Shown here: positions 4,348-24,179 of the stretch, one piece after another
How positions within the stretch are numbered: position 1 is the first letter of the stretch
How the letters are laid out: every line of letters starts with the position of its first letter
Source of the DNA: a virus
Taxonomy: Duplodnaviria > Caudoviricetes
IMG/VR virus record: IMGVR_UViG_3300003793_000004
Span: 1 to 24,273 of that record
Length of the DNA: 24,273 nucleotides
Strand: one strand, 5' to 3'
Translations under genes and position numbers: made by a program
The notes under the pieces: model-generated
What the model saw: only the letters and a program-made list of their open reading frames with translations
What the model was told of the DNA's origin: nothing
Database searches by the model: none

Positions 4348-4623
4348 ATGAGTGATTTTTTTTACAAGCCTTTGCACGAAAAGGTATTAGTACTTCCTAA
4401 AGAAAGGGATACAAAAACAAGTGGCGGCATTATTAAAGTTGCTGACGATGCCAACATCCCGGATTATGGGGTGGTAGTAGCTGTGTCTGATTTAGTAGAC
4501 TACATAAAGTTGGGGGATACTGTTATGTATGAGCACGGTGCGGGCAAGCCCATTGTGCTGCAAGATAAAAAGTATGTGTTGTTAGATTGCAGTCAACATG
4601 GAAGTGTATTAGGGATAGTTTAA
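4348..4623 (+). CDS. groES: GroES/Cpn10-like co-chaperonin
   Basis: KPLHEKVLV, mobile loop KTSGGII, GVVVAVS, IKLGDTVMY, terminal VLGIV. Confidence 0.9.
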   Translation: MSDFFYKPLHEKVLVLPKERDTKTSGGIIKVADDANIPDYGVVVAVSDLVDYIKLGDTVMYEHGAGKPIVLQDKKYVLLDCSQHGSVLGIV

Positions 4624-5012
4624 TACCCCAACTCACTAAGTTTAATCATTGGTTTTTTATTATAAGTCAGATTGATAGCATTAAGTATCAGTCTGGCTTT
4701 TGTCATTATACGCTTAGGCAACTCTGACCCTTCTGCAAACGCATCATTCTTTTCGGCAGCATCTTCCCATTCGTACGCTTTCTTGAAGGTGTTCAGGTGG
4801 CGGGTGTATGCAACACGCTCGATGCCGATGTGCTTTCTGATTTCGTTGTCGGTAAAACCATTCATGTGCGCCACACCTGCAAAAACGACCATGCCGATTG
4901 TCGTCTCGGTGTTGGTGCTGCCAGAGGCGTTTACCACATTCCATTGCCTGCCAGGTGCTTTGTCCCACAAGAATTGCGGGCGTGTCAGTTCTTCAAGTTG
5001 CTGTAGTGTCAT
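4620..5012 (-). CDS. hypothetical protein, possible HTH DNA-binding regulator (130 aa)
   Basis: VFAGVAHMNGFTDNEIRKHIGIERVAYTRHL resembles a helix-turn-helix; 4-bp overlap with the upstream minus ORF. Confidence 0.7.
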   Translation of the reverse strand: MTLQQLEELTRPQFLWDKAPGRQWNVVNASGSTNTETTIGMVVFAGVAHMNGFTDNEIRKHIGIERVAYTRHLNTFKKAYEWEDAAEKNDAFAEGSELPKRIMTKARLILNAINLTYNKKPMIKLSELGY

Positions 5013-5272
5013 TTGCTTTTATTATGTTTTTGTAATGGTGACAATCCTTCTTCACGCAAAGCCCTCAACGTAAGATGTTCCTCCACCCCGAACGTCCTGA
5101 AAAGTTTGCCCCAATCGTATGTGTAGACCAAGGCATCGCCTACTTTATGTGAACCCACTTGGAAACGGAGGCAAAAAGTCGGTTGCGTATCAAGCAAAAA
5201 CCTCCTTATCTCGTCCAAATTAAACGACTTACGGTGGATACAAATAGTATTTGAGGCAAAATTAACCCTCAT
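5009..5272 (-). CDS. hypothetical protein (87 aa)
   Basis: ATG with aacaacaATG leader directly downstream of a minus-strand TAAATTTG element. Confidence 0.7.
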   Translation of the reverse strand: MRVNFASNTICIHRKSFNLDEIRRFLLDTQPTFCLRFQVGSHKVGDALVYTYDWGKLFRTFGVEEHLTLRALREEGLSPLQKHNKSK

Positions 5273-5362: not shown

Positions 5363-6232
5363 ATGGTTACTACGAACTCGATATTTGTTACGGTAGATAA
5401 GGCATTAAATGATGAAATTGTTACCAATGGTGGCATAAAGTTTTATATAGACCCAACATATAACCCTGAGTGGAACGTATCTGTAACGGGGAAAGTAGCG
5501 GCTATACCGAAATACATAAAAGGCTCAAACTCAGCCAAGTTGGCAAGATTGAAAGAGGGAGATGAAGTCGCATTTGATTACTCGGTAATCAGCGAAATGA
5601 AGTTTAATGAAAACCCTGAACTATACCAAGAAACTTTAGATGTACCGGGAAGTTTAAAAAGATTTGAGAACTCTAAAGGTAAAATGATTTCAATATTTTG
5701 CTATGATGGGGCTATTTCTAAAAGATGGGGTTGCTCGCTATACGATAAAAATAGCCGTACTATAATTGATGGAAGGGACAATATCAACGAATCAGAGAAA
5801 GACAGATGGCTTGCACAATTTCACTTTGGTGGCGTGCAGGATTTTAGATTTAAGAACTTACTAGAAATAGAAAGTAAAAAATCAGGTACCGAAATACAAA
5901 CCGATGATTATTGGAATGTTAGTATGGATAATATTCTTGCTATTAAAAAAGGTGATGACGTAGTATCTGTTTCTAACTATGTTATTGCTACTCCTTTAAT
6001 GGTAGATGCTACTTCATCTTATAACTTTCAGAATGGCGTTATGCTGCCTCCAATGAGTGTATGCTTTGAATTAACAGACAGGGCTGAGGTTGCATCCGAT
6101 TATCCTGAACTGGGATTAAAAAAAGGCGATATAGCTTCTACTGAAGAAATGTATATATGCAGATATGATTTGTGGGGTAAAAAGTATTTCCTAATCAATA
6201 AAAACAGGATACTAGGCACATGGCACAAATAA
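5363..6232 (+). CDS. GroES-like protein with two Cpn10-like modules and an insertion (289 aa)
   Basis: N-module IVTNGGIKFYID...GKVAAIP...LKEGDEVAFDY; C-module NYVIATP...DRAEV...LGLKKGD...GKKYFLINKNRILG. Confidence 0.65.
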   Translation: MVTTNSIFVTVDKALNDEIVTNGGIKFYIDPTYNPEWNVSVTGKVAAIPKYIKGSNSAKLARLKEGDEVAFDYSVISEMKFNENPELYQETLDVPGSLKRFENSKGKMISIFCYDGAISKRWGCSLYDKNSRTIIDGRDNINESEKDRWLAQFHFGGVQDFRFKNLLEIESKKSGTEIQTDDYWNVSMDNILAIKKGDDVVSVSNYVIATPLMVDATSSYNFQNGVMLPPMSVCFELTDRAEVASDYPELGLKKGDIASTEEMYICRYDLWGKKYFLINKNRILGTWHK

Positions 6233-14604: not shown

Positions 14605-16494
14605 ATGGCAGCTTTCGGTAGTAATAATGCGGATATGGCGGTTGTGCTTCCTAGTTATGGGATGTCACCCGCACAGGCGGATATGTTTCAGGCGCAAATG
14701 GCAGCAAAACAGCCAAAAGTAAAGCCGTATCAAACACCTGCTATACCATTAACGCCTAATAAGTACAATGATAATACCGTTCAAAATATCTATAATGATT
14801 ACCTAGCTAAAAAAGCAAAGGAGTATCAAGATTGGGCTGTAACCAACAGGGCATCTGAGGCAGATTTGAAGAACCATATTTTGGCAGATAATGATTTTAA
14901 AGACAGAGTTTCAAATTTCGATAATTTAGATAAAATGTATTCTGCTTTACCTACTCAGTCTAAAGTATTGCAGCAAACTTATGGTACTGATAACAATCTA
15001 CCATTTTTGAATAAAGCTATTGAGAACTTTCATAACACATTTTTTGATAAAGATGCAACAGGTAAACCTATTGCACCTAAACCTTCATCTCAGGTAGACC
15101 CTACAACATTTAATCCATTTAATGGAACTGAGACAGACGATTTCCTTCAAAATAGCTTTAATAATAGAAATAAAGCAATTGATGCCCACTTAAAATCATT
15201 GCCAGCTTCAGACATTACAAAAGATTACGAGGTTAGGGATAAAGCTGGTAATGTAACAAAGAAAAATTTCAATGCTAAGACCAATGCGTTTATGAATGTG
15301 AATTATGATGAAAATGGCAGACCTATGGGATTAGCCGTTCCATCATCACAAGTTGAGTTGCCTAATGCGCAAGATGTAGCACCCGTTGATAATACTCAGT
15401 CAAATAGTCCTTTAAGCAGCAATTTCTTAGCAAATAATTTGCAGTATCAGCAAATACCTCAAAAGCAGACTTTACAAGTTGTGCCTCCTGAGTTACATCA
15501 AACTATTGCAACAGACCCTAAAATGAGATTTGATTTGCTTCAACTAGCTAAAGAAAAGCAAGCTGAACTGCAAAAGCAATATCCAACAGCAGACCCATCT
15601 TTATTGCATGCAAATGTTTTACATGATTACATTTCAGGTAATAATAAAATGGATGATAATGGCCAGATAACATCAAACGGATTGATGTCTACAATGTATA
15701 AGACAAATGATGCGCAAAAAGCACCAATTACTAAAAATAATTTCACTATTAATCTAGGGGAAGGCGGTAAAAATCCTCAACCTTTTGCTAGTCCTAATAG
15801 CCTGACTAATCTTTTGACACATCCTACTTATGCGGTAACGAATAAGGATAAAGAAGATCCTAACAACTCTTCAATACAACAGGCATTTAATCACTTCGCT
15901 GTAATGAATGCTGCTTCAAAAGATAAAGGCGAAGCACTAATCCCTGTACCATTAATTGTAAATACAAGGGATTTATCCCCTAAAACAAACAGTCTTATTT
16001 CTAAAAGTATAGATAAGTTTAACGACTTAACCATGCACGATAGAAAGCCAGAGGATAACGAGCTAATTGCCAAGGTTAAAAGTGGAGATACAAATGCAGC
16101 CGCAGATCTTTATGCGCAATTAATGACTAGGCACAACAAAGCAAATGGTATTGATGAAGTGTTTACTGCAAATGATGTGAAAGAAGCGGTACCTGTTCTT
16201 AGAACATTTAATGCACCTAAAACTGACGAGAAAGGTGAGATTATTTATGACCCTTCAACTAAAAAGCCTATTACAGTTCAGAAAACAGCATTCTTACTTC
16301 CAGGTTCTAATGAGTTTAGAAATGCTGCTCAGGATAGGATTAACGATGTTCAAAGCGAAAAGGATAATCAGTTGATGCACACTTTGAATGCTGATATTGT
16401 TAAGCCAAGGGTAGTTAAGCCAGTTTCAGCACCCGTACAAAAACAAGCATTAGCACAACCAAAAGTTACACTTAAAAAAGGAATACTAGACTAA
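14605..16494 (+). CDS. putative ejected internal virion protein (629 aa)
   Basis: Cys-free, Asn/Gln/Lys/Pro-rich; middle position in a small-medium-large gene trio. Confidence 0.6.
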   Translation: MAAFGSNNADMAVVLPSYGMSPAQADMFQAQMAAKQPKVKPYQTPAIPLTPNKYNDNTVQNIYNDYLAKKAKEYQDWAVTNRASEADLKNHILADNDFKDRVSNFDNLDKMYSALPTQSKVLQQTYGTDNNLPFLNKAIENFHNTFFDKDATGKPIAPKPSSQVDPTTFNPFNGTETDDFLQNSFNNRNKAIDAHLKSLPASDITKDYEVRDKAGNVTKKNFNAKTNAFMNVNYDENGRPMGLAVPSSQVELPNAQDVAPVDNTQSNSPLSSNFLANNLQYQQIPQKQTLQVVPPELHQTIATDPKMRFDLLQLAKEKQAELQKQYPTADPSLLHANVLHDYISGNNKMDDNGQITSNGLMSTMYKTNDAQKAPITKNNFTINLGEGGKNPQPFASPNSLTNLLTHPTYAVTNKDKEDPNNSSIQQAFNHFAVMNAASKDKGEALIPVPLIVNTRDLSPKTNSLISKSIDKFNDLTMHDRKPEDNELIAKVKSGDTNAAADLYAQLMTRHNKANGIDEVFTANDVKEAVPVLRTFNAPKTDEKGEIIYDPSTKKPITVQKTAFLLPGSNEFRNAAQDRINDVQSEKDNQLMHTLNADIVKPRVVKPVSAPVQKQALAQPKVTLKKGILD

Positions 16495-19400
16495 TGGCAG
16501 AAGATACTAACATACCACAAGAGGCTGTACAAGATGCACCTCAACCTATTGATAATCTAGGTAAGTTATACAGTGTAGTTCATGAAGCAGGTTTATTTAC
16601 TAAGCCTATTAATGAATTTAGGCAGAAGTATAGTGAACCTAGTTCTATTGACAAGTTGTATAATGTTGTAAATGAAGCAGGTTATTTTACTAAGTCAAAG
16701 GATGATTTTTATCAAAAATACTATCCTGACTTAAAAAAAAAAGACGTTTCGCAACCTTCTTCAGTTGGTGGCGGTCAAAGTTCCCAATTACCATTACCTG
16801 CACAATTACCTTCGGGCGTTCCTCAAACTCCTGATGAAGTATTAAAAGCAGGGCTTAGTGGGAATGGGGTACAACCTGTAAATGCGCCACAAGCGGTAGA
16901 ACAGGCAGCGCAACAACAACCTTTAATTAAACCCGTTGTAAACAATGGACAACACTTCCTTCAAGGGATAGGTCAAGCTATTACTCAGCCTGTAAACCCT
17001 AATGCGCACGGAGTTAAACCCGCTAAAAGTGAAGCCCCTAGTATAGAGGATGCTATAAATAATACCGTTGAGAATAATATCAGGCAAAGACGTGGTGTTT
17101 ATGACAGTACACTTCCTGCTATTACCAAGGACGAAATAAATAAGGAAAAAGAAACGGTTATAAATGCCTATAAAAACGGTGATTTAGTCCCTCAGAAAGA
17201 AGGGGATAGGTCAGTATTAAAAAGAACGGGTACTGTTGCAGAAAACTTTTTAAACGGGCTTAATCAGGCATACCTTAATAATCAAAAAGCAGCTTTGTTG
17301 ACCAATGCTTCCAAAGAAGATGCGATAGACTTTTTAAATAGGGATGCTAAGGGACAAGTTAAGGCTTTTGAGTTAGGGGAAAACGATAAGGTTGCGCCTA
17401 ATGGAATGGCTGATGAAGCTGCAAAATATGTAGGTGAACAAGCAAATGCTTTATTAAAAGGAACTATTGGTGCAATGGCAGGTGCGGCTACTCCATTTAC
17501 AGGTGGTGGCAGTTTTGGTATGTTTGCATCCACGGCTAATGAAATGGCTAACCAAGGGTATGCAGATGCACTTGCAAAGAACTATTATGCTATAAAACAG
17601 CAACATCCTGAGCTAGATGATAGTGATGCGTATGACCAAGCTAAAAAATCGGCATTAGTTGGTGCCGCTATCAACTTAGGTACAAGTGCTTTGTTGTCAC
17701 ACGAAGTTGCCCCAAAAATACCAACCCCAACAGTAGAAGTTAATGGCGTAATTGATGGGATAAAACAATCTTTGACACACGCTGTAACATCTTCACCAAA
17801 AGTGATAGGTTCTTTTGCAGGTGGTTCTGTATTGAACGATTTAACTTCAAAAGTAGTAGGTAACGATGTATCTACAAAAGAGATATTAGATAATGCAGGT
17901 GAGGCTGCCAAAAATGGTGCTGTAATGCACTTTGGTATGTGGGCTTTAACTGAACCTGCTAAAATACCTTCATATATAAGACCTCAGATTGAAAACGTTG
18001 TTGCTTCTGCACCAAGGGAAGAAGTTAAGAAAGTGTATCAAGATGCGGAAGATGCAGGTCAGTTACCACAAGGTACTACTGATAATGTTATAAATACACT
18101 AACAGCATTCGATAAACAGAAAGCGATACTTGCACCATTTGCTATTTCAGAGGAAAAGAAAGCGGCTATTGCAGGAAAGTTAGTGCAGAAAGAAGCGTTG
18201 AAAACTCAATTAAAAGAATTATCTAGTCACGAAAATGCGTTCCCTGATAAAATACAAGAAATCAAGCAACAGATTGAAGGTATAGATAGCGATATAGCAG
18301 AAATGTATAAGGCTAAAGATGTGTTCTCTAAAGAGAAAGATAGCCTTACAGGTGACAGCCCAAAAACAGACATTTCTTCACCTCAAAATAGCGACAATGG
18401 CGAAATCAACGAAGCCGATGCCAAAACCCAAGCCGAAGAAGGGCAGCAAGGGGTATTAAGCGATCAGGCGCAAACGGGCAATGAAGGATTAAAAGATACA
18501 TTAGGTAAAAATGTTAAGGCTAATTCATTGCCAATAGATATATATAATGCAGTTGATAATGAAATTATATCTCACGACAAAATTGTAGGTGGTAGTGATG
18601 GGATTGAAATTAAGGTTAATAAAATTAACTATGATGAAAATGAGATACCTCGTTATATTGAAGGGGTAGTAACGTTTAGATTTAAAGGTGACAAATTTGA
18701 TACAGCGAAAAAAGTAGTAATTCCTATTGATGAATCTAAATTAACAAGTGAAGTATCTGTACCTAAAGAAGAAGTATCTGCACCTGTTTTGGAAGAAACT
18801 ACTATTGAAAAACAACCTCCTTCTGAGCCTGTACAAGAGGAACAACCTGTTGAAAAGAAGTTCACCGAAAGTGAGGATATTAACAGGATATATAATGAGT
18901 TGAAGGATAATTACGGAGAAAAAGATGGTGCAAAATATTATCAAGCAGCAATAAGATTAGTAAATCCTAATGAAAATACTATTGTAGATATACACAGAGG
19001 CGGCGTAGTCGTAAAAGAAGGAGATAGGTATATACTAAAACCTTTCTATGATACTGATGGCAGTTCTAAGAATATAAAAATACTAAAAAATGGTAATGAT
19101 GTTACGGATATATATGGTAAAAAAGAAGAACAGCCGCAAGTAAGCACCAAGTCGGCACCAAGTGAGGATGGCAATACCAATGACATAACCACAGTTAGGC
19201 ATCTAGCAGATTTAGAAGCAGAACAACGACAAGGGTTATTATCAGGTGCCGTATTCTCTTCTTTAGAAAAGGGCGATAAATTTAAAGTAGGCGGAGTTGA
19301 ATATACTGTTGAAGGCAAAACAAAGCCTACTACAAAATCTTATGTAGACAAAAACGGCAAAACAGTTGAATATAAGAGTTCGTCTATAAAGATTAAAGGT

Positions 19401-22400
19401 ACAGATGGCAAGCCTATTACAGCAGAGTTTAGAGAATACGAAAACGGTTCCGGAAGTTGGATGGGTAGAGGTCAGACAAGAGACTCAGATAGATGGGGGC
19501 AATTAAGCAGAAATATTGAAGGGGATATATCTGTCGACCTTTTAAATGAAAATAATCCATTCCACGATAAGTCTGATAGTTTTAAGTTAGCGCAAAAGAA
19601 TATTGACAAGATAAACGAATTGACTAATAAGGAACAACCACAAGAAGAGCCAAAATCTGAAACTAAAGCGCAAATAGGGAAAAATGTTGAGGTCAAGCAT
19701 TTAGATGCTACATACCGAATAGCCTCATTACGAGATACAGACCCCATGTATAAACAAGGTTTTAGGTACGAGGTAACAATATATTACCCCGAATCTTTGG
19801 GGGAAAATGGGAATTATTCAGATGGAAACTTATATAAAGAAGTCCCTACTGAGCAGCAAATTACAAAAGATATAACCTCTACTATTAATTATGAACTTGA
19901 ACAGTTAAATGAAAAAGACTATTTATCTGGTAGAGAAGAAAAAATAAAAGAAGCCCTTAAATCAGTTAAGGAATCATTAGATGGGAATACTAAAGAACCC
20001 TCCACCTCAAAAGGTAGCGACATTTCAAAAGATGATTTTAAAAACCATATTTTAGATGTAGTTGCCAATGTAAAAGATAATCACTTCACGCACAGAATAA
20101 CCGTTGAAGGATTAAATCAAGCAGGTATCGAACAAGCGGTAAGAAATATTAGAGAAGGAAAGAATACTGCTGCTGCTAGGAAACTTCTTGCTGCCATTGA
20201 TGATATGTACGAGAATAAGTACGTTCCAATGAATACCTCAGCAGGTGGTTTATCTGATAGAATAGGTATCCCATTTGATGAATATTTCGATGCTACTCCG
20301 CAAGACCTAAGCGATGCTTTTAACCTTATCAAAACAGTTCCAGAAGAAAGTTTAGATAAGGCAGCAGAAATTATGACCAAAGAGGGCATAAATTCGCAAA
20401 ATATTAATTCACCCGAAATTAAAAATCTCTTTTATGAGTTCGATAGCGACTACACCCCCGATGACTACAACGCAATCAAGCAAAAATTATCAGAAAGCGT
20501 TGATAATAGCGAAAATGATAAACAAGGCAAAGAAGAACGGAACAGTACCACCGTTGAACAGCCAAAGTCGGAATCTGCCTCACCTTCCCAAACCACCGAA
20601 GGAGAAACTACCACACGAGGCACTACCGAAGGAAAGGCTACCGAAGATGCCAAAAGTGAATCCGACAAACAACGTACAGCAACCGTCGACACAGGAACTG
20701 AAACCGGCAAGGGAACGGGCGATGGGAAGCAGTCAGGACAGTCCGGACGTGAATCCGTAGAGAAAGCAGGTGAGGTTAAAGAAAAGTTTTATAAGGCTGC
20801 TGAAAAAATCCGTAAGGGAAAAATTGATGATGATATTTTAATGAGTGGTATTCCATTTGCAAAAGAAGTATGGAATGGCGCAGTTGATGTGTTTGCAAAT
20901 ACCATTGAATTAACAGGAGATGCAGCACAAGCGTTGTCTAACGCTTTAGACCATATCCGTGAATCAGACTGGTATAAAGGTTTAGCCACTAACGAACAAA
21001 GAGAACGGGCTGAAAGTAGATTTAAAAAAGACTATGAAGAAGTAGATGTCGAAAATTTGGTTAGTGGTGGCGGTGGAAATACTATCGGCGTAAACCACGC
21101 TTCGCTTAATGATTTAGCAGAAAGATTAGGATTACCACCAATAGAAAGGGGAACTATATTAACTCCAGAGCAATATGCTGATAGGGGTAGGGCTTTATTA
21201 AATGCAGGGGCAGACCCGTACAATCTTGACGAATATAAGGGAGAAATAGAAGATAAGATTTCTATTGCCAGAGCGCACGAGGAGATACTTGCCAAAAAAG
21301 CCGATGCTATCAAGGATAAGAATAGCCAAGAGTATAAAGATGCTGCAAAGGAACTTTATAACTACTCTAAAGATGTTGTAAAGCCATTAGGAACAAAGTT
21401 TGCTGCAATAGGTACATCATTACAAGGTGTTAGAAACATTGACACAGATAGCTTCACTTCTGTTAGTCGTCAAGTGCAAGATAATAGCGGTAGCGACTTA
21501 ACCCCTAAGCAAACCGCAGATATTGAAAAGCTAACTAACACAATCAAAGACTTAAAAACAAGGCTAGAGCAAGCCGAAAATAGGTTTAATGATGCGGCAG
21601 ATGCTGTACATAACAATCCTGATACTGTTGATAATGCCAAAGCGTTAAAAGATGCTGAGGATAAATTCAATAACCTACAAAAAGAACACGATGCAATAAA
21701 AGCTGAACTTGAAAAGCTAAAAGAGCAAAATAACAAGCCAAAAGAAAATACCCCTGCTAAGGGTAAATTTGAGGAAAGAAAGGAAATAAGGAAGGAACTT
21801 GTAGAAAAGATTGATAAGAGATTGAAAGACAAATTTCAGTCTGTAAGGGATAAATTGAAAGCTCAAAGAAGTCAATTTAATGCCAATCCTATTCCATTGG
21901 ATATTGTACCTGATTTAGTTCATATCGCAAAAGATTTAGTTGCTAAGGGTGTGATAAAAGCTGCCGACATAGTTGATACTATTTATCACGAATTAAAAGA
22001 AGATTTAGGCGATGCAACTGCAAGAGATTTAAGGGATGCTATTAGTCAATATGGCAAAATAACTAAACCTAGTGAAGATCCAAACGACAAAGCATTCGCA
22101 GAAGCTAAGGCTACTATGCGTTTATTATCTGCTATTGAAGATGCAAATAACGGTACACCCCCATTAAAAAGTGGTTTTCAAAGACCAGAACCTTCTCCGG
22201 ATTTAAGAGATTTGCGTAAACAACTTAACGATGCTATTAAGAAAAATCAGATAAATGCTATTGATGGCGAAAAGCACATGAAGTCTTTGCTTGATGCCGC
22301 TAAAAAACGTATGCAAAATGCTATTGATGATTTAACTAGGGCTATTGATAATAATGAAAAGCTTCCTAAGCGTGAAAGTGGTATCAAATATGATGAGGAA

Positions 22401-24179
22401 GCCAATAAGTTAAGAGAAAAGCGAAAAGAGCTTAGAAGCCAATACGATAAAATGTTCGGTACTGATAAAGAACTTACGCCGGAAGAAAAAGAACAGCGTA
22501 GGTTTAATCAGTTGCAAGCACAATTAGAGGATTTACAAAATGGCGTAGTTAAAAATAAAAGTACAGACAAGATTACATCTGATAGGATAGAAGAATTGAA
22601 AGCTCAAATAGCTAAGATAAAAGGAGATAATACTTTAAAATCCCTACAAGCCCAATTTGCAGACAAGCAGGATAATAAATTTACGCCTCAGCAAGCAAAA
22701 GATATTTGGAACTATATGAAAGAAAACTACCTTAATAAAGGGGTAAAATATGTAGATGCCATAAAACTTGTTGGGAATGATTTAGGGCTATCTTTTAATC
22801 AAGTTAGTCACGCTATTGTAACTCCTAAACTAAAACCTATTATGGATGCAGTTTGGAAAAATAGAAGCGATTTGGCAAAACATAGGGCTGCTACTCAAAG
22901 GTATATTAGTGAACAACAACAGAACCCGGCATTAAAGGCATTTAAGAAAATTACCAATGGTATAAGAGAGGCTGCTGTGTTTGGTCACGGTGGGGTATTT
23001 GTAGGCACTCACGCAGGTATGACGATGTTTGACAATCCGACAAGAGCAATACATACCATAAAAGCTTTTTTCAATGCGTATAAGTTAGCGTATGGTAAAA
23101 CTGCAACCTATGAAAAAATGATGACTGAACTTAAAAATGAAGATAACTATGTGATGGCGCAAAGGGCGGGGCTTAAAAACAATCCTGACCAAATAAATTC
23201 AGATAGCGAAATTCATAAGCCAATGTTTGGCAGACTTTCAGAATCAGGCGTAAGAGGGTTTAATTCTATTAAAATACTAAGACAAGCACTATTCGATGCG
23301 CATTGGAATAACTTATCTGCCGCAGATAAAGCGGTAGTAGGTAAAGATGGAATTTCATTAGCAGCTAAAGAAATAGCTAGAGAAATAAATCTTGCTACTG
23401 GTGCCACAACAGTTAAACTTCCTGAAGTAGTTAACGATGTGACATTTGCAGGTGGCATGGAAGCAGCTAGATGGCAAAAGCTATTACAAAACCCTGTATT
23501 AGCAGCTAACTCTGCATATAAAATACTCCTTAATCCAAGTAAAGCCACTGTTGCAGATAAAGTGTTTTTAAAAGTATGGGCTAGTAGGGTCGGATGGCAG
23601 TTAGGATTATATGCAGCAGCATTGGGCGTAAATGCAGCTATTCAAAGTCAAAAAAATCCAAATAATAAAGTAAACTTTACTGATTGGAAAAAATCAGATT
23701 GGTTGAAATATAAGTTTGGTGATAAAACAGTAGCAGATGTTACTTCAGGAATGCTTTCTCCTATACATTTATTGGCTATGTTACAACAAGCAGGGAGTAG
23801 TACAAGAAAAGAAAGACATGGCGATACTGAGGCACAGGCTTATGGAAATACAATGTTCCATTATGTGAGAGGTAAATTAGCTCCTGGATATTCTTTAATG
23901 ACAGACTTAGCGACCAAACATGACTTTATGGGCAATACGCTTCCTTTTTATAGCGAAAATCCTGATAACAAGTTTAGTCACAAATTGACTTATCCTGAAT
24001 ATTTATGGAGTAAAGCTCCATTGCCTGTTGCAGAAGCAGCAAAGATTACTTATGAAAGCGCACACGATAATGGAGTAGATGATAAAACATTCAAAAATTT
24101 TTGGAAAGGCGCAGGATATGGTGCGTTAAGTGGTACAACAGGATTTAAGGTTTATGAAAATAATAACCATACTAAATAA
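16494..24179 (+). CDS. giant ejected / large polyvalent virion protein (2561 aa)
   Basis: Cys-free; N-terminal repeats, Gly/Ala hydrophobic helices, acidic linkers, long coiled coils, C-terminal KLAPGYSLMTDLATKHDFMGN reminiscent of LPD38-type termini. Confidence 0.8.
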   Translation: MAEDTNIPQEAVQDAPQPIDNLGKLYSVVHEAGLFTKPINEFRQKYSEPSSIDKLYNVVNEAGYFTKSKDDFYQKYYPDLKKKDVSQPSSVGGGQSSQLPLPAQLPSGVPQTPDEVLKAGLSGNGVQPVNAPQAVEQAAQQQPLIKPVVNNGQHFLQGIGQAITQPVNPNAHGVKPAKSEAPSIEDAINNTVENNIRQRRGVYDSTLPAITKDEINKEKETVINAYKNGDLVPQKEGDRSVLKRTGTVAENFLNGLNQAYLNNQKAALLTNASKEDAIDFLNRDAKGQVKAFELGENDKVAPNGMADEAAKYVGEQANALLKGTIGAMAGAATPFTGGGSFGMFASTANEMANQGYADALAKNYYAIKQQHPELDDSDAYDQAKKSALVGAAINLGTSALLSHEVAPKIPTPTVEVNGVIDGIKQSLTHAVTSSPKVIGSFAGGSVLNDLTSKVVGNDVSTKEILDNAGEAAKNGAVMHFGMWALTEPAKIPSYIRPQIENVVASAPREEVKKVYQDAEDAGQLPQGTTDNVINTLTAFDKQKAILAPFAISEEKKAAIAGKLVQKEALKTQLKELSSHENAFPDKIQEIKQQIEGIDSDIAEMYKAKDVFSKEKDSLTGDSPKTDISSPQNSDNGEINEADAKTQAEEGQQGVLSDQAQTGNEGLKDTLGKNVKANSLPIDIYNAVDNEIISHDKIVGGSDGIEIKVNKINYDENEIPRYIEGVVTFRFKGDKFDTAKKVVIPIDESKLTSEVSVPKEEVSAPVLEETTIEKQPPSEPVQEEQPVEKKFTESEDINRIYNELKDNYGEKDGAKYYQAAIRLVNPNENTIVDIHRGGVVVKEGDRYILKPFYDTDGSSKNIKILKNGNDVTDIYGKKEEQPQVSTKSAPSEDGNTNDITTVRHLADLEAEQRQGLLSGAVFSSLEKGDKFKVGGVEYTVEGKTKPTTKSYVDKNGKTVEYKSSSIKIKGTDGKPITAEFREYENGSGSWMGRGQTRDSDRWGQLSRNIEGDISVDLLNENNPFHDKSDSFKLAQKNIDKINELTNKEQPQEEPKSETKAQIGKNVEVKHLDATYRIASLRDTDPMYKQGFRYEVTIYYPESLGENGNYSDGNLYKEVPTEQQITKDITSTINYELEQLNEKDYLSGREEKIKEALKSVKESLDGNTKEPSTSKGSDISKDDFKNHILDVVANVKDNHFTHRITVEGLNQAGIEQAVRNIREGKNTAAARKLLAAIDDMYENKYVPMNTSAGGLSDRIGIPFDEYFDATPQDLSDAFNLIKTVPEESLDKAAEIMTKEGINSQNINSPEIKNLFYEFDSDYTPDDYNAIKQKLSESVDNSENDKQGKEERNSTTVEQPKSESASPSQTTEGETTTRGTTEGKATEDAKSESDKQRTATVDTGTETGKGTGDGKQSGQSGRESVEKAGEVKEKFYKAAEKIRKGKIDDDILMSGIPFAKEVWNGAVDVFANTIELTGDAAQALSNALDHIRESDWYKGLATNEQRERAESRFKKDYEEVDVENLVSGGGGNTIGVNHASLNDLAERLGLPPIERGTILTPEQYADRGRALLNAGADPYNLDEYKGEIEDKISIARAHEEILAKKADAIKDKNSQEYKDAAKELYNYSKDVVKPLGTKFAAIGTSLQGVRNIDTDSFTSVSRQVQDNSGSDLTPKQTADIEKLTNTIKDLKTRLEQAENRFNDAADAVHNNPDTVDNAKALKDAEDKFNNLQKEHDAIKAELEKLKEQNNKPKENTPAKGKFEERKEIRKELVEKIDKRLKDKFQSVRDKLKAQRSQFNANPIPLDIVPDLVHIAKDLVAKGVIKAADIVDTIYHELKEDLGDATARDLRDAISQYGKITKPSEDPNDKAFAEAKATMRLLSAIEDANNGTPPLKSGFQRPEPSPDLRDLRKQLNDAIKKNQINAIDGEKHMKSLLDAAKKRMQNAIDDLTRAIDNNEKLPKRESGIKYDEEANKLREKRKELRSQYDKMFGTDKELTPEEKEQRRFNQLQAQLEDLQNGVVKNKSTDKITSDRIEELKAQIAKIKGDNTLKSLQAQFADKQDNKFTPQQAKDIWNYMKENYLNKGVKYVDAIKLVGNDLGLSFNQVSHAIVTPKLKPIMDAVWKNRSDLAKHRAATQRYISEQQQNPALKAFKKITNGIREAAVFGHGGVFVGTHAGMTMFDNPTRAIHTIKAFFNAYKLAYGKTATYEKMMTELKNEDNYVMAQRAGLKNNPDQINSDSEIHKPMFGRLSESGVRGFNSIKILRQALFDAHWNNLSAADKAVVGKDGISLAAKEIAREINLATGATTVKLPEVVNDVTFAGGMEAARWQKLLQNPVLAANSAYKILLNPSKATVADKVFLKVWASRVGWQLGLYAAALGVNAAIQSQKNPNNKVNFTDWKKSDWLKYKFGDKTVADVTSGMLSPIHLLAMLQQAGSSTRKERHGDTEAQAYGNTMFHYVRGKLAPGYSLMTDLATKHDFMGNTLPFYSENPDNKFSHKLTYPEYLWSKAPLPVAEAAKITYESAHDNGVDDKTFKNFWKGAGYGALSGTTGFKVYENNNHTK
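16563..16721 (+). repeat. 30-aa-period tandem repeat x2 at N-terminus of the giant protein
   Basis: KLYSVVHEAGLFTKPINEFRQKY and KLYNVVNEAGYFTKSKDDFYQKY, 90 bp apart. Confidence 0.9.
18397..18459 (+). CDS. candidate overprinted basic micropeptide MAKSTKPMPKPKPKKGSKGY (+1 frame)
   Basis: ATG with A at -3 and A-rich leader; 7 Lys and 4 Pro in 20 aa; local GC-richer codon shift confined to this interval. Confidence 0.5.
   Translation: MAKSTKPMPKPKPKKGSKGY
20515..20760 (+). CDS. candidate overprinted Lys/Pro-rich protein (+1 frame, 81 aa; frame open from 20434)
   Basis: MINKAKK...LPHLPKPPKEKLPHEALPKERLPKMPK; coincides with a GC-richer low-complexity stretch of the host ORF. Confidence 0.4.
   Translation: MINKAKKNGTVPPLNSQSRNLPHLPKPPKEKLPHEALPKERLPKMPKVNPTNNVQQPSTQELKPARERAMGSSQDSPDVNP

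Follow-up and report, generated by a model that had tools for sequence, protein, structure and literature searches.

The window, by which we mean the whole stretch of 24,273 nucleotides analyzed here, carries a giant late gene in which, judging from the sequence, a separately translated mini-gene at 18397–18459 is probably nested in the +1 frame. If the nested gene is real, it is very short: its 20 codons are a size that gene callers skip, and trypsin would cut its product to pieces. The original prediction of a separately initiated small basic gene receives indirect support from look-alike peptides in the head modules of other phages, from the first rank of the nested peptide among comparable ORFs, from the wobble choice in the host codons, and from other nested genes in the relatives.

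The nested ORF and its host gene

The ORF spans 63 bases, from an ATG at 18397 to a TAA ending at 18459, and is thus a complete ATG-to-stop frame lying on the same strand as, and in another frame inside, another gene, which is what defines a nested gene. Its Lys/Pro-rich product has a net charge of +7, compared to −4 for the host-frame residues encoded by the same bases. The codons and the peptide had been predicted exactly, but the start had been placed at 18385, so that 12 upstream bases were included, and two further in-frame ATGs, at 18319 and, internally, at 18418, were absent from that description. The features of the region are as follows.

18397–18459, plus strand: nested +1-frame ORF, candidate gene; 20 aa, MAKSTKPMPKPKPKKGSKGY, net charge +7
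18376–18396, plus strand: putative initiation region of the Bacteroidota type; rich in A, including the base at −3, and lacking a Shine-Dalgarno sequence; middling score
18319–18459, plus strand: longer 46-aa version from the upstream in-frame ATG; less likely start
16494–24179, plus strand: host gene, giant protein of 2561 aa; closes the tail/internal-protein module; product probably carried in the virion and injected
18354–18533, plus strand: acidic low-complexity linker, host-frame aa 621–680; starts right after the conserved N-terminal domain
20434–20760, plus strand: second +1 ORF, 108 aa, within another linker; codon anomaly the strongest in the gene; no homologue found

The start context was scored against a yardstick of 28 real starts, whose leave-one-out median was 1.4. 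The ATG at 18397 scored 0.24, which ranked 19th among the 141 ATGs of the +1 frame and was the best of the three in-frame ATGs (0.24 vs −4.1 and −6.0). The ATG at 18319 (−4.1) ranked 72nd of 141, and the 46-aa version opens with 26 residues that do not resemble the stand-alone peptides described below. The folding energy at the nested start (rank 48 of 140) was uninformative. A sigma-70 scan gave 2 sites against 3.4 expected, and TAnnTTTG, the Bacteroidota promoter consensus, was not found within 800 bases upstream of the nested ORF.

The conserved N-terminal domain of the host protein ends 15 codons before the nested ATG. The host stretch of aa 621–680 is acidic, with 13% hydrophobic residues, and this composition agrees with the disordered linker that had been predicted here. 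The giant protein itself had no Pfam or PHROG match. Among the 12 homologues found, three (P0007, P0011, and P0012) carry ddrB-ParB, ART-PolyVal, or Kinase-PolyVal domains. As polyvalent proteins are a class proposed to enter the cell together with the phage DNA (PMC5512222), the giant protein is likely to be injected; the earlier term "ejected protein" is thus reasonable, given these domains in three homologues and a gene order like that of phi38:1.

The genes upstream of the giant gene match virion-structural PHROGs and, below the Pfam cut-off, a crAss muzzle C-terminal domain, and the gene order is syntenic with gp96–gp101 of phi38:1. The giant gene is letter-identical on a 66.6-kb contig (L008), where terminase and portal genes come next. 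As the only cultured matches of a 256-aa structural protein were the Cellulophaga phages phi38:1, phi40:1, and Calle (7 records, 25% identity), the phage is presumably a Bacteroidota-infecting podophage. The N-terminal region of the giant protein had no match in the Cellulophaga phages, and no relatives of the giant gene were found in cell genomes. Elsewhere in the window, a small ORF at 4348–4623 (GroES-like by eye) and a 289-aa protein at 5363–6232 with an N-terminal GroES match (phrog_13932) parallel phi38:1. Two minus-strand ORFs (130 and 87 aa) at 4620–5272 break the otherwise plus-strand window, and the GC content climbs to 0.45 at 4501–5000.

Look-alike peptides and host codon choice

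A pattern consisting of the last 8 residues of the nested peptide plus the stop, and thus taken from the query, matched 13 viral loci, compared to 1 for the reversed pattern. An ATG was present 3–17 codons upstream in 9 of the 13 viral matches. Lys and Pro made up at least half of the unforced residues in 8 of the 13, these 8 representing about five independent lineages, and in none of 30 matches from cell genomes, which were scanned with a slightly stricter pattern (stops TAA/TGA only) and included 8 from one gene family. In several of these 30, the terminal motif was a +1 by-product of host EEG..R.L motifs, indicating that this motif alone can arise by chance in cell genes. A scrambled-order control pattern was dropped, as 3 of its 7 matches were the same kind of Lys/Pro peptide; therefore the reversed pattern and the cell-genome scan served as controls.

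For eight of the nine ATG-bearing viral peptides, a capsid, scaffold, adaptor, or terminase gene is found no more than about 2 kb away, the exception (L031) being near an endolysin. The stand-alone look-alikes are 11–25 aa long, and several have purine-rich, Shine-Dalgarno-like leaders by eye; the closest to the nested peptide is L040, MAKKSTPKSKPMPKPPKKGGKGC, and another, L038, comes directly after an MPFKS-type gene. The unforced codons of two related pairs, a small sample, showed 4 synonymous and 0 replacing changes in one pair and 3 synonymous and 2 replacing changes in the other. A second pattern gave 13 matches, of which 4 were one 21-aa peptide two genes after a major head gene; most of the remaining 9 were the N-terminal ends of longer proteins. 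Two further pattern scans (7 and 5 matches) yielded nested versions, namely a 28-aa peptide in the tail of a portal gene (L050), a 15-aa peptide inside a gene of >1000 codons (L046/L047, one sequence twice), and a doubtful one with a GTG start (L053). The 1280-aa ORF of L053 also contains, in its +1 frame, a nested ORF of the MPxxSxKQ type and, shortly after it, a short Lys-rich one that ends in KKGKKY.

The exact core pattern KPMPKPKPKK had 0 matches in viral contigs. When the unforced half was compared with residue shuffles, only L040 stood above them (1.4% of 2000), while the other five pairs gave 7–54%, so that order-specific similarity was seen in one of six pairs. The 11–28-aa Lys/Pro phage peptides ending in K[GK][CY] are a real group, of low complexity and with a likeness that is mostly compositional. 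In the literature searched, which left aside most subscription journals and supplements, we found no description of this group; an earlier one is possible.

To score the fit of the nested peptide, a composition model was built on 114 unforced residues from 11 hand-selected members (nine from the first pattern, L016, and L045). The nested peptide ranked first of 625 +1 ATG-to-stop ORFs of 11–32 aa in 47 long frames, with 20.7 bits against 4.8 for the next independent ORF, and first of 3395 six-frame ORFs from the window, the relatives, and cultured phages (24.3; next 12.4). It begins with M[AK]K, consists of Lys and Pro to at least one half, ends in PKKGxKG[CY] and a stop, and is shorter than 30 aa, where the end motif is query-derived and only start, length, and composition are independent. 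The wide margins of both first ranks, and the agreement of start, length, and end with the stand-alone group, count against the reading that the ORF is an untranslated chance by-product of an Asn/Glu/Ala/Gln/Thr linker with C-ending codons, its ATG and stop being accidental. We consider this reading unlikely, though the +1 frames of such linkers are indeed Lys-rich throughout, as the original prediction had warned. The warning, which extended to Pro, is answered in part, as linkers seldom yield a +1 frame this rich in both residues: a survey of 905 +1 segments from 111 long frames with 199 linker-like blocks found Lys+Pro of exactly 0.5 in six other segments and no other above 0.5.

Scans against Pfam and PHROG gave no match for the peptide in its 20-aa or 46-aa version, and membership in the MPFKS-type families phrog_2423/phrog_1375 was rejected on this ground. 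A tblastn search of 50,697 phage records with the low-complexity filter on gave no match, and both the nested peptide and its closest stand-alone look-alike were absent from a collection of about 15 billion proteins. Three unnamed 26–30-aa clusters in the Atlas, at 0.85–0.87, are a lead only.

A local switch of the host codons to C/G endings had been predicted, and it is present but modest. GC3 was 0.48 over the 21 codons of the ORF, compared to 0.257 gene-wide, and 86 of 2541 windows of the gene reached 0.48 (the top 3.4%). The codon-surprise score at the nested ORF (z = 1.5) was equaled or exceeded in 224 of 2540 windows, and the best window overlapping the ORF (2.6) was only the sixth peak of the gene. 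C-ending codons also extend upstream, making up 7 of the 24 codons immediately before the ORF, as a chance origin would allow. GC3 alone was rejected as proof of a nested gene.

The choice of individual wobble bases is more specific. All four Ala/Thr host codons inside the nested ORF end in C, and for this reason the +1 peptide has its four prolines. Four C-ending Ala/Thr codons in a row occur at only two places in the giant gene (3 of 380 runs), the other falling within the second long +1 ORF. We calculated, for unchanged host residues, the probability P that the +1 frame resembles the family as closely as it does here; it was 4.4e-7 under gene usage, 2.7e-6 under uniform usage, and 2.1e-7 under flanking usage. 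Under these three nulls (P 2e-7 to 3e-6) the host codon choice appears constrained by the nested product, and a chance origin in which flanking codon usage accounts for the four Pro codons fails (P 2e-7). Under the codon usage of the most C-rich stretch of the gene, however, P was 1.9e-4, or about 0.1 after 509 windows (not significant), and aa 1312–1330 of the giant protein reached 1.9e-7 through C-ending codons alone, without family likeness, a point in favor of chance. The wobble statistic is therefore not proof.

The second linker has a +1 frame with 122 open codons (20392–20760), in which the 108-aa ORF starts at 20434. The two strongest codon anomalies of the gene (z 5.2 and 4.5) fall within this stretch, and the ORF had no homologue and no Atlas match. 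Either a gene is nested here, or the sequence is locally rich in C for some other reason.

Nested genes of the relatives and the other explanations

The relatives comprised nine distinct giant-gene loci, or 15 including duplicates and the phage itself, some of them incomplete, with about 35–49% identity in the best-matching segment of the giant protein. The nested Lys/Pro peptide was found in none of the nine, as would be expected of a chance by-product; their linkers could not be aligned with that of the window. It was also found, by pattern or by score, in none of four whole records. Four public DNA runs over 17400–21400, two of which cover the nested ORF, showed no letter differences.

The relatives nest other basic genes in their linkers. 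MP[FY]KS-type +1 ORFs were present in four of the nine; that of L013 matched phrog_1375 (E 1.5e-6). In L001, a nested +1 ORF matched phrog_2423 (E 5.3e-5). A complete relative (G002) has the MPFKS-type gene as a stand-alone gene at the record end (L063, 72–215) and none nested in its giant gene. A further nested +1 family, found in five of the nine, showed stronger conservation in the +1 frame than in that of the host (e.g., z 9.4 compared to 1.0). Four of its members, when scanned, had no PHROG match below E 0.01, and a 30–97-aa search with one member gave no stand-alone homologue. The nested ORFs of these relatives are as follows.

L001, 14962–15159 and 15169–15330: nested +1 ORFs in tandem within a single linker, 65 aa and 53 aa long; the latter matches phrog_2423
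L001, 11190–11387; L007, 11739–11921; L011, 6881–7081: "..QKSL....MN.." +1 family, 45–65 aa, after the conserved N-terminal domain
L013, 12147–12314; L014, 6234–6389: the same family, size, and position

Among cultured phages, the giant structural gene gp90 of the Flavobacterium phage elemoA_7-9A contains an unannotated MPFKS-type +1 ORF (L055, 9001–9129) and, upstream, a second basic +1 ORF (L055, 7987–8109), and MW202828 has a nested MPFKS-type ORF in its giant structural gene (L056, 9001–9132). In G003, a stand-alone 83-aa Lys/Met-rich ORF ending in MSKLKY (L069, 3773–4024) lies among small basic genes. The nesting of other basic genes in the relatives' linkers raises the prior for a nested gene at 18397 but is no proof of it.

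The five relatives with the "..QKSLS..MNL.." family in linkers after the same domain also bring in the reading that the ORF is a relic, either a once-functional gene captured by read-through of the giant gene or a stop-truncated remnant of this family, perhaps no longer expressed. The giant genes of this group do split and fuse, and the L013 member begins with MKPKPKQKSL and aligns loosely with the nested peptide, but the similarity to the family was not significant (z at most 2.3), and drift would erode the ATG, the stop, and the near-maximal family score (20.6 of 25 possible), all of which are intact. A relic is therefore quite improbable. Still less credible is a +1 frameshift in the linker that would give a shortened giant protein of about 655 aa with the +1 stretch as its basic C-terminus. 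In its favor, no stop interrupts the +1 frame over 53 codons from 18298, and in four relatives the N-terminal part is a protein of its own, with 783–1161 aa. Against it, such an open stretch is unremarkable (P 0.095), likeness to the family begins exactly at the ATG (MAK) and not in the preceding 26 residues, and no shift site was obvious by eye.

Possible role and comparison with known systems

For the preferred reading, a separately translated mini-gene, we propose internal initiation on the late mRNA, with ribosomes using the ATG at 18397 as an A-rich start of the Bacteroidota type, free of a Shine-Dalgarno sequence. Each +1 codon would combine bases 2–3 of one host codon with base 1 of the next, so that the third host base would pick the peptide residue. 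The giant protein could tolerate this arrangement, as the same bases can encode both an Asp/Glu/Gln/Ala/Thr linker in frame 0 and, one base further on, a Lys/Pro peptide in the +1 frame. The product is predicted to be an unstructured polycation of 20 residues, which would bind DNA while the head is being assembled or packaged. Provided that the gene is real, we tentatively suggest that the peptide serves, within the head or around it, as a bulk counter-ion or as a filler that compacts DNA; DNA binding and charge balance are proposed by analogy with phiX174 J and with the counter-ions inside phage particles, which include Mg2+ and polyamines (PMC7096446). It would then be a testable question whether double-stranded DNA phages use peptide counter-ions besides these.

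A real gene would also connect the tiny peptides of head modules with the tendency of giant virion genes to harbor nested genes. More doubtful is a broader proposal, that tailed phages share an overlooked class of 11–28-residue Lys/Pro/Gly polycation genes that move between head-module gaps and the +1 frame of acidic linkers in portal or giant injected proteins, with such linkers as general slots and the products acting as virion counter-ions or DNA-compacting peptides. The phage elemoA_7-9A, with its nested MPFKS-type ORF in gp90, offers a cultured test bed for the architecture.

The phages phi38:1 and Calle (Pervagoviridae) resemble the phage in gene order, with a giant structural gene at the end, but they are distant, and no nested basic ORF above the filter was found in gp100 or gp101. 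Polyvalent proteins (PMC5512222) resemble the giant protein in the domains of P0007, P0011, and P0012 and in their late-module position, whereas the giant protein of the window has no Pfam domain; the words "overlapping" and "linker" are absent from the main text of that source. The phrog_2423/phrog_1375 genes are likewise small and basic, have no assigned function, and occur both as stand-alone genes and nested in the +1 frame of the relatives' giant genes, but they are 45–60 aa long with a conserved motif, compared to 20 aa for the nested peptide.

The phiX174 J protein is small and basic. It is a DNA-binding protein that also binds the capsid protein F, as described in a preprint (bioRxiv 10.64898/2026.07.25.740675). 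J provides the working model, a tiny basic peptide rich in Gly and Lys that binds the DNA as it is packaged, but it belongs to single-stranded DNA microviruses and is not nested in a giant gene, and we liken the two without claiming a sequence relationship.

The architecture itself is best compared with lambda Rz1, which is embedded in Rz, spanin genes being known in embedded, overlapped, and separated forms (PMC6139136). As in Rz1/Rz, a same-strand gene lies wholly within another, in the +1 frame and over a flexible linker of the host protein, and in both cases the kind of gene also exists separated and is often missed by annotation. The two differ in that Rz1 is a lipoprotein and the lysis partner of its host gene, while the nested peptide has 20 aa without a signal or lipobox and is not known to act together with its host protein, and the linkers of the relatives contain different small genes. 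An Rz1-type o-spanin was rejected, the peptide having no hydrophobic stretch and no Cys. Rz1/Rz, as described in PMC6139136, thus already provides a case of a gene nested in the +1 frame across a flexible linker, of which separated forms occur elsewhere.
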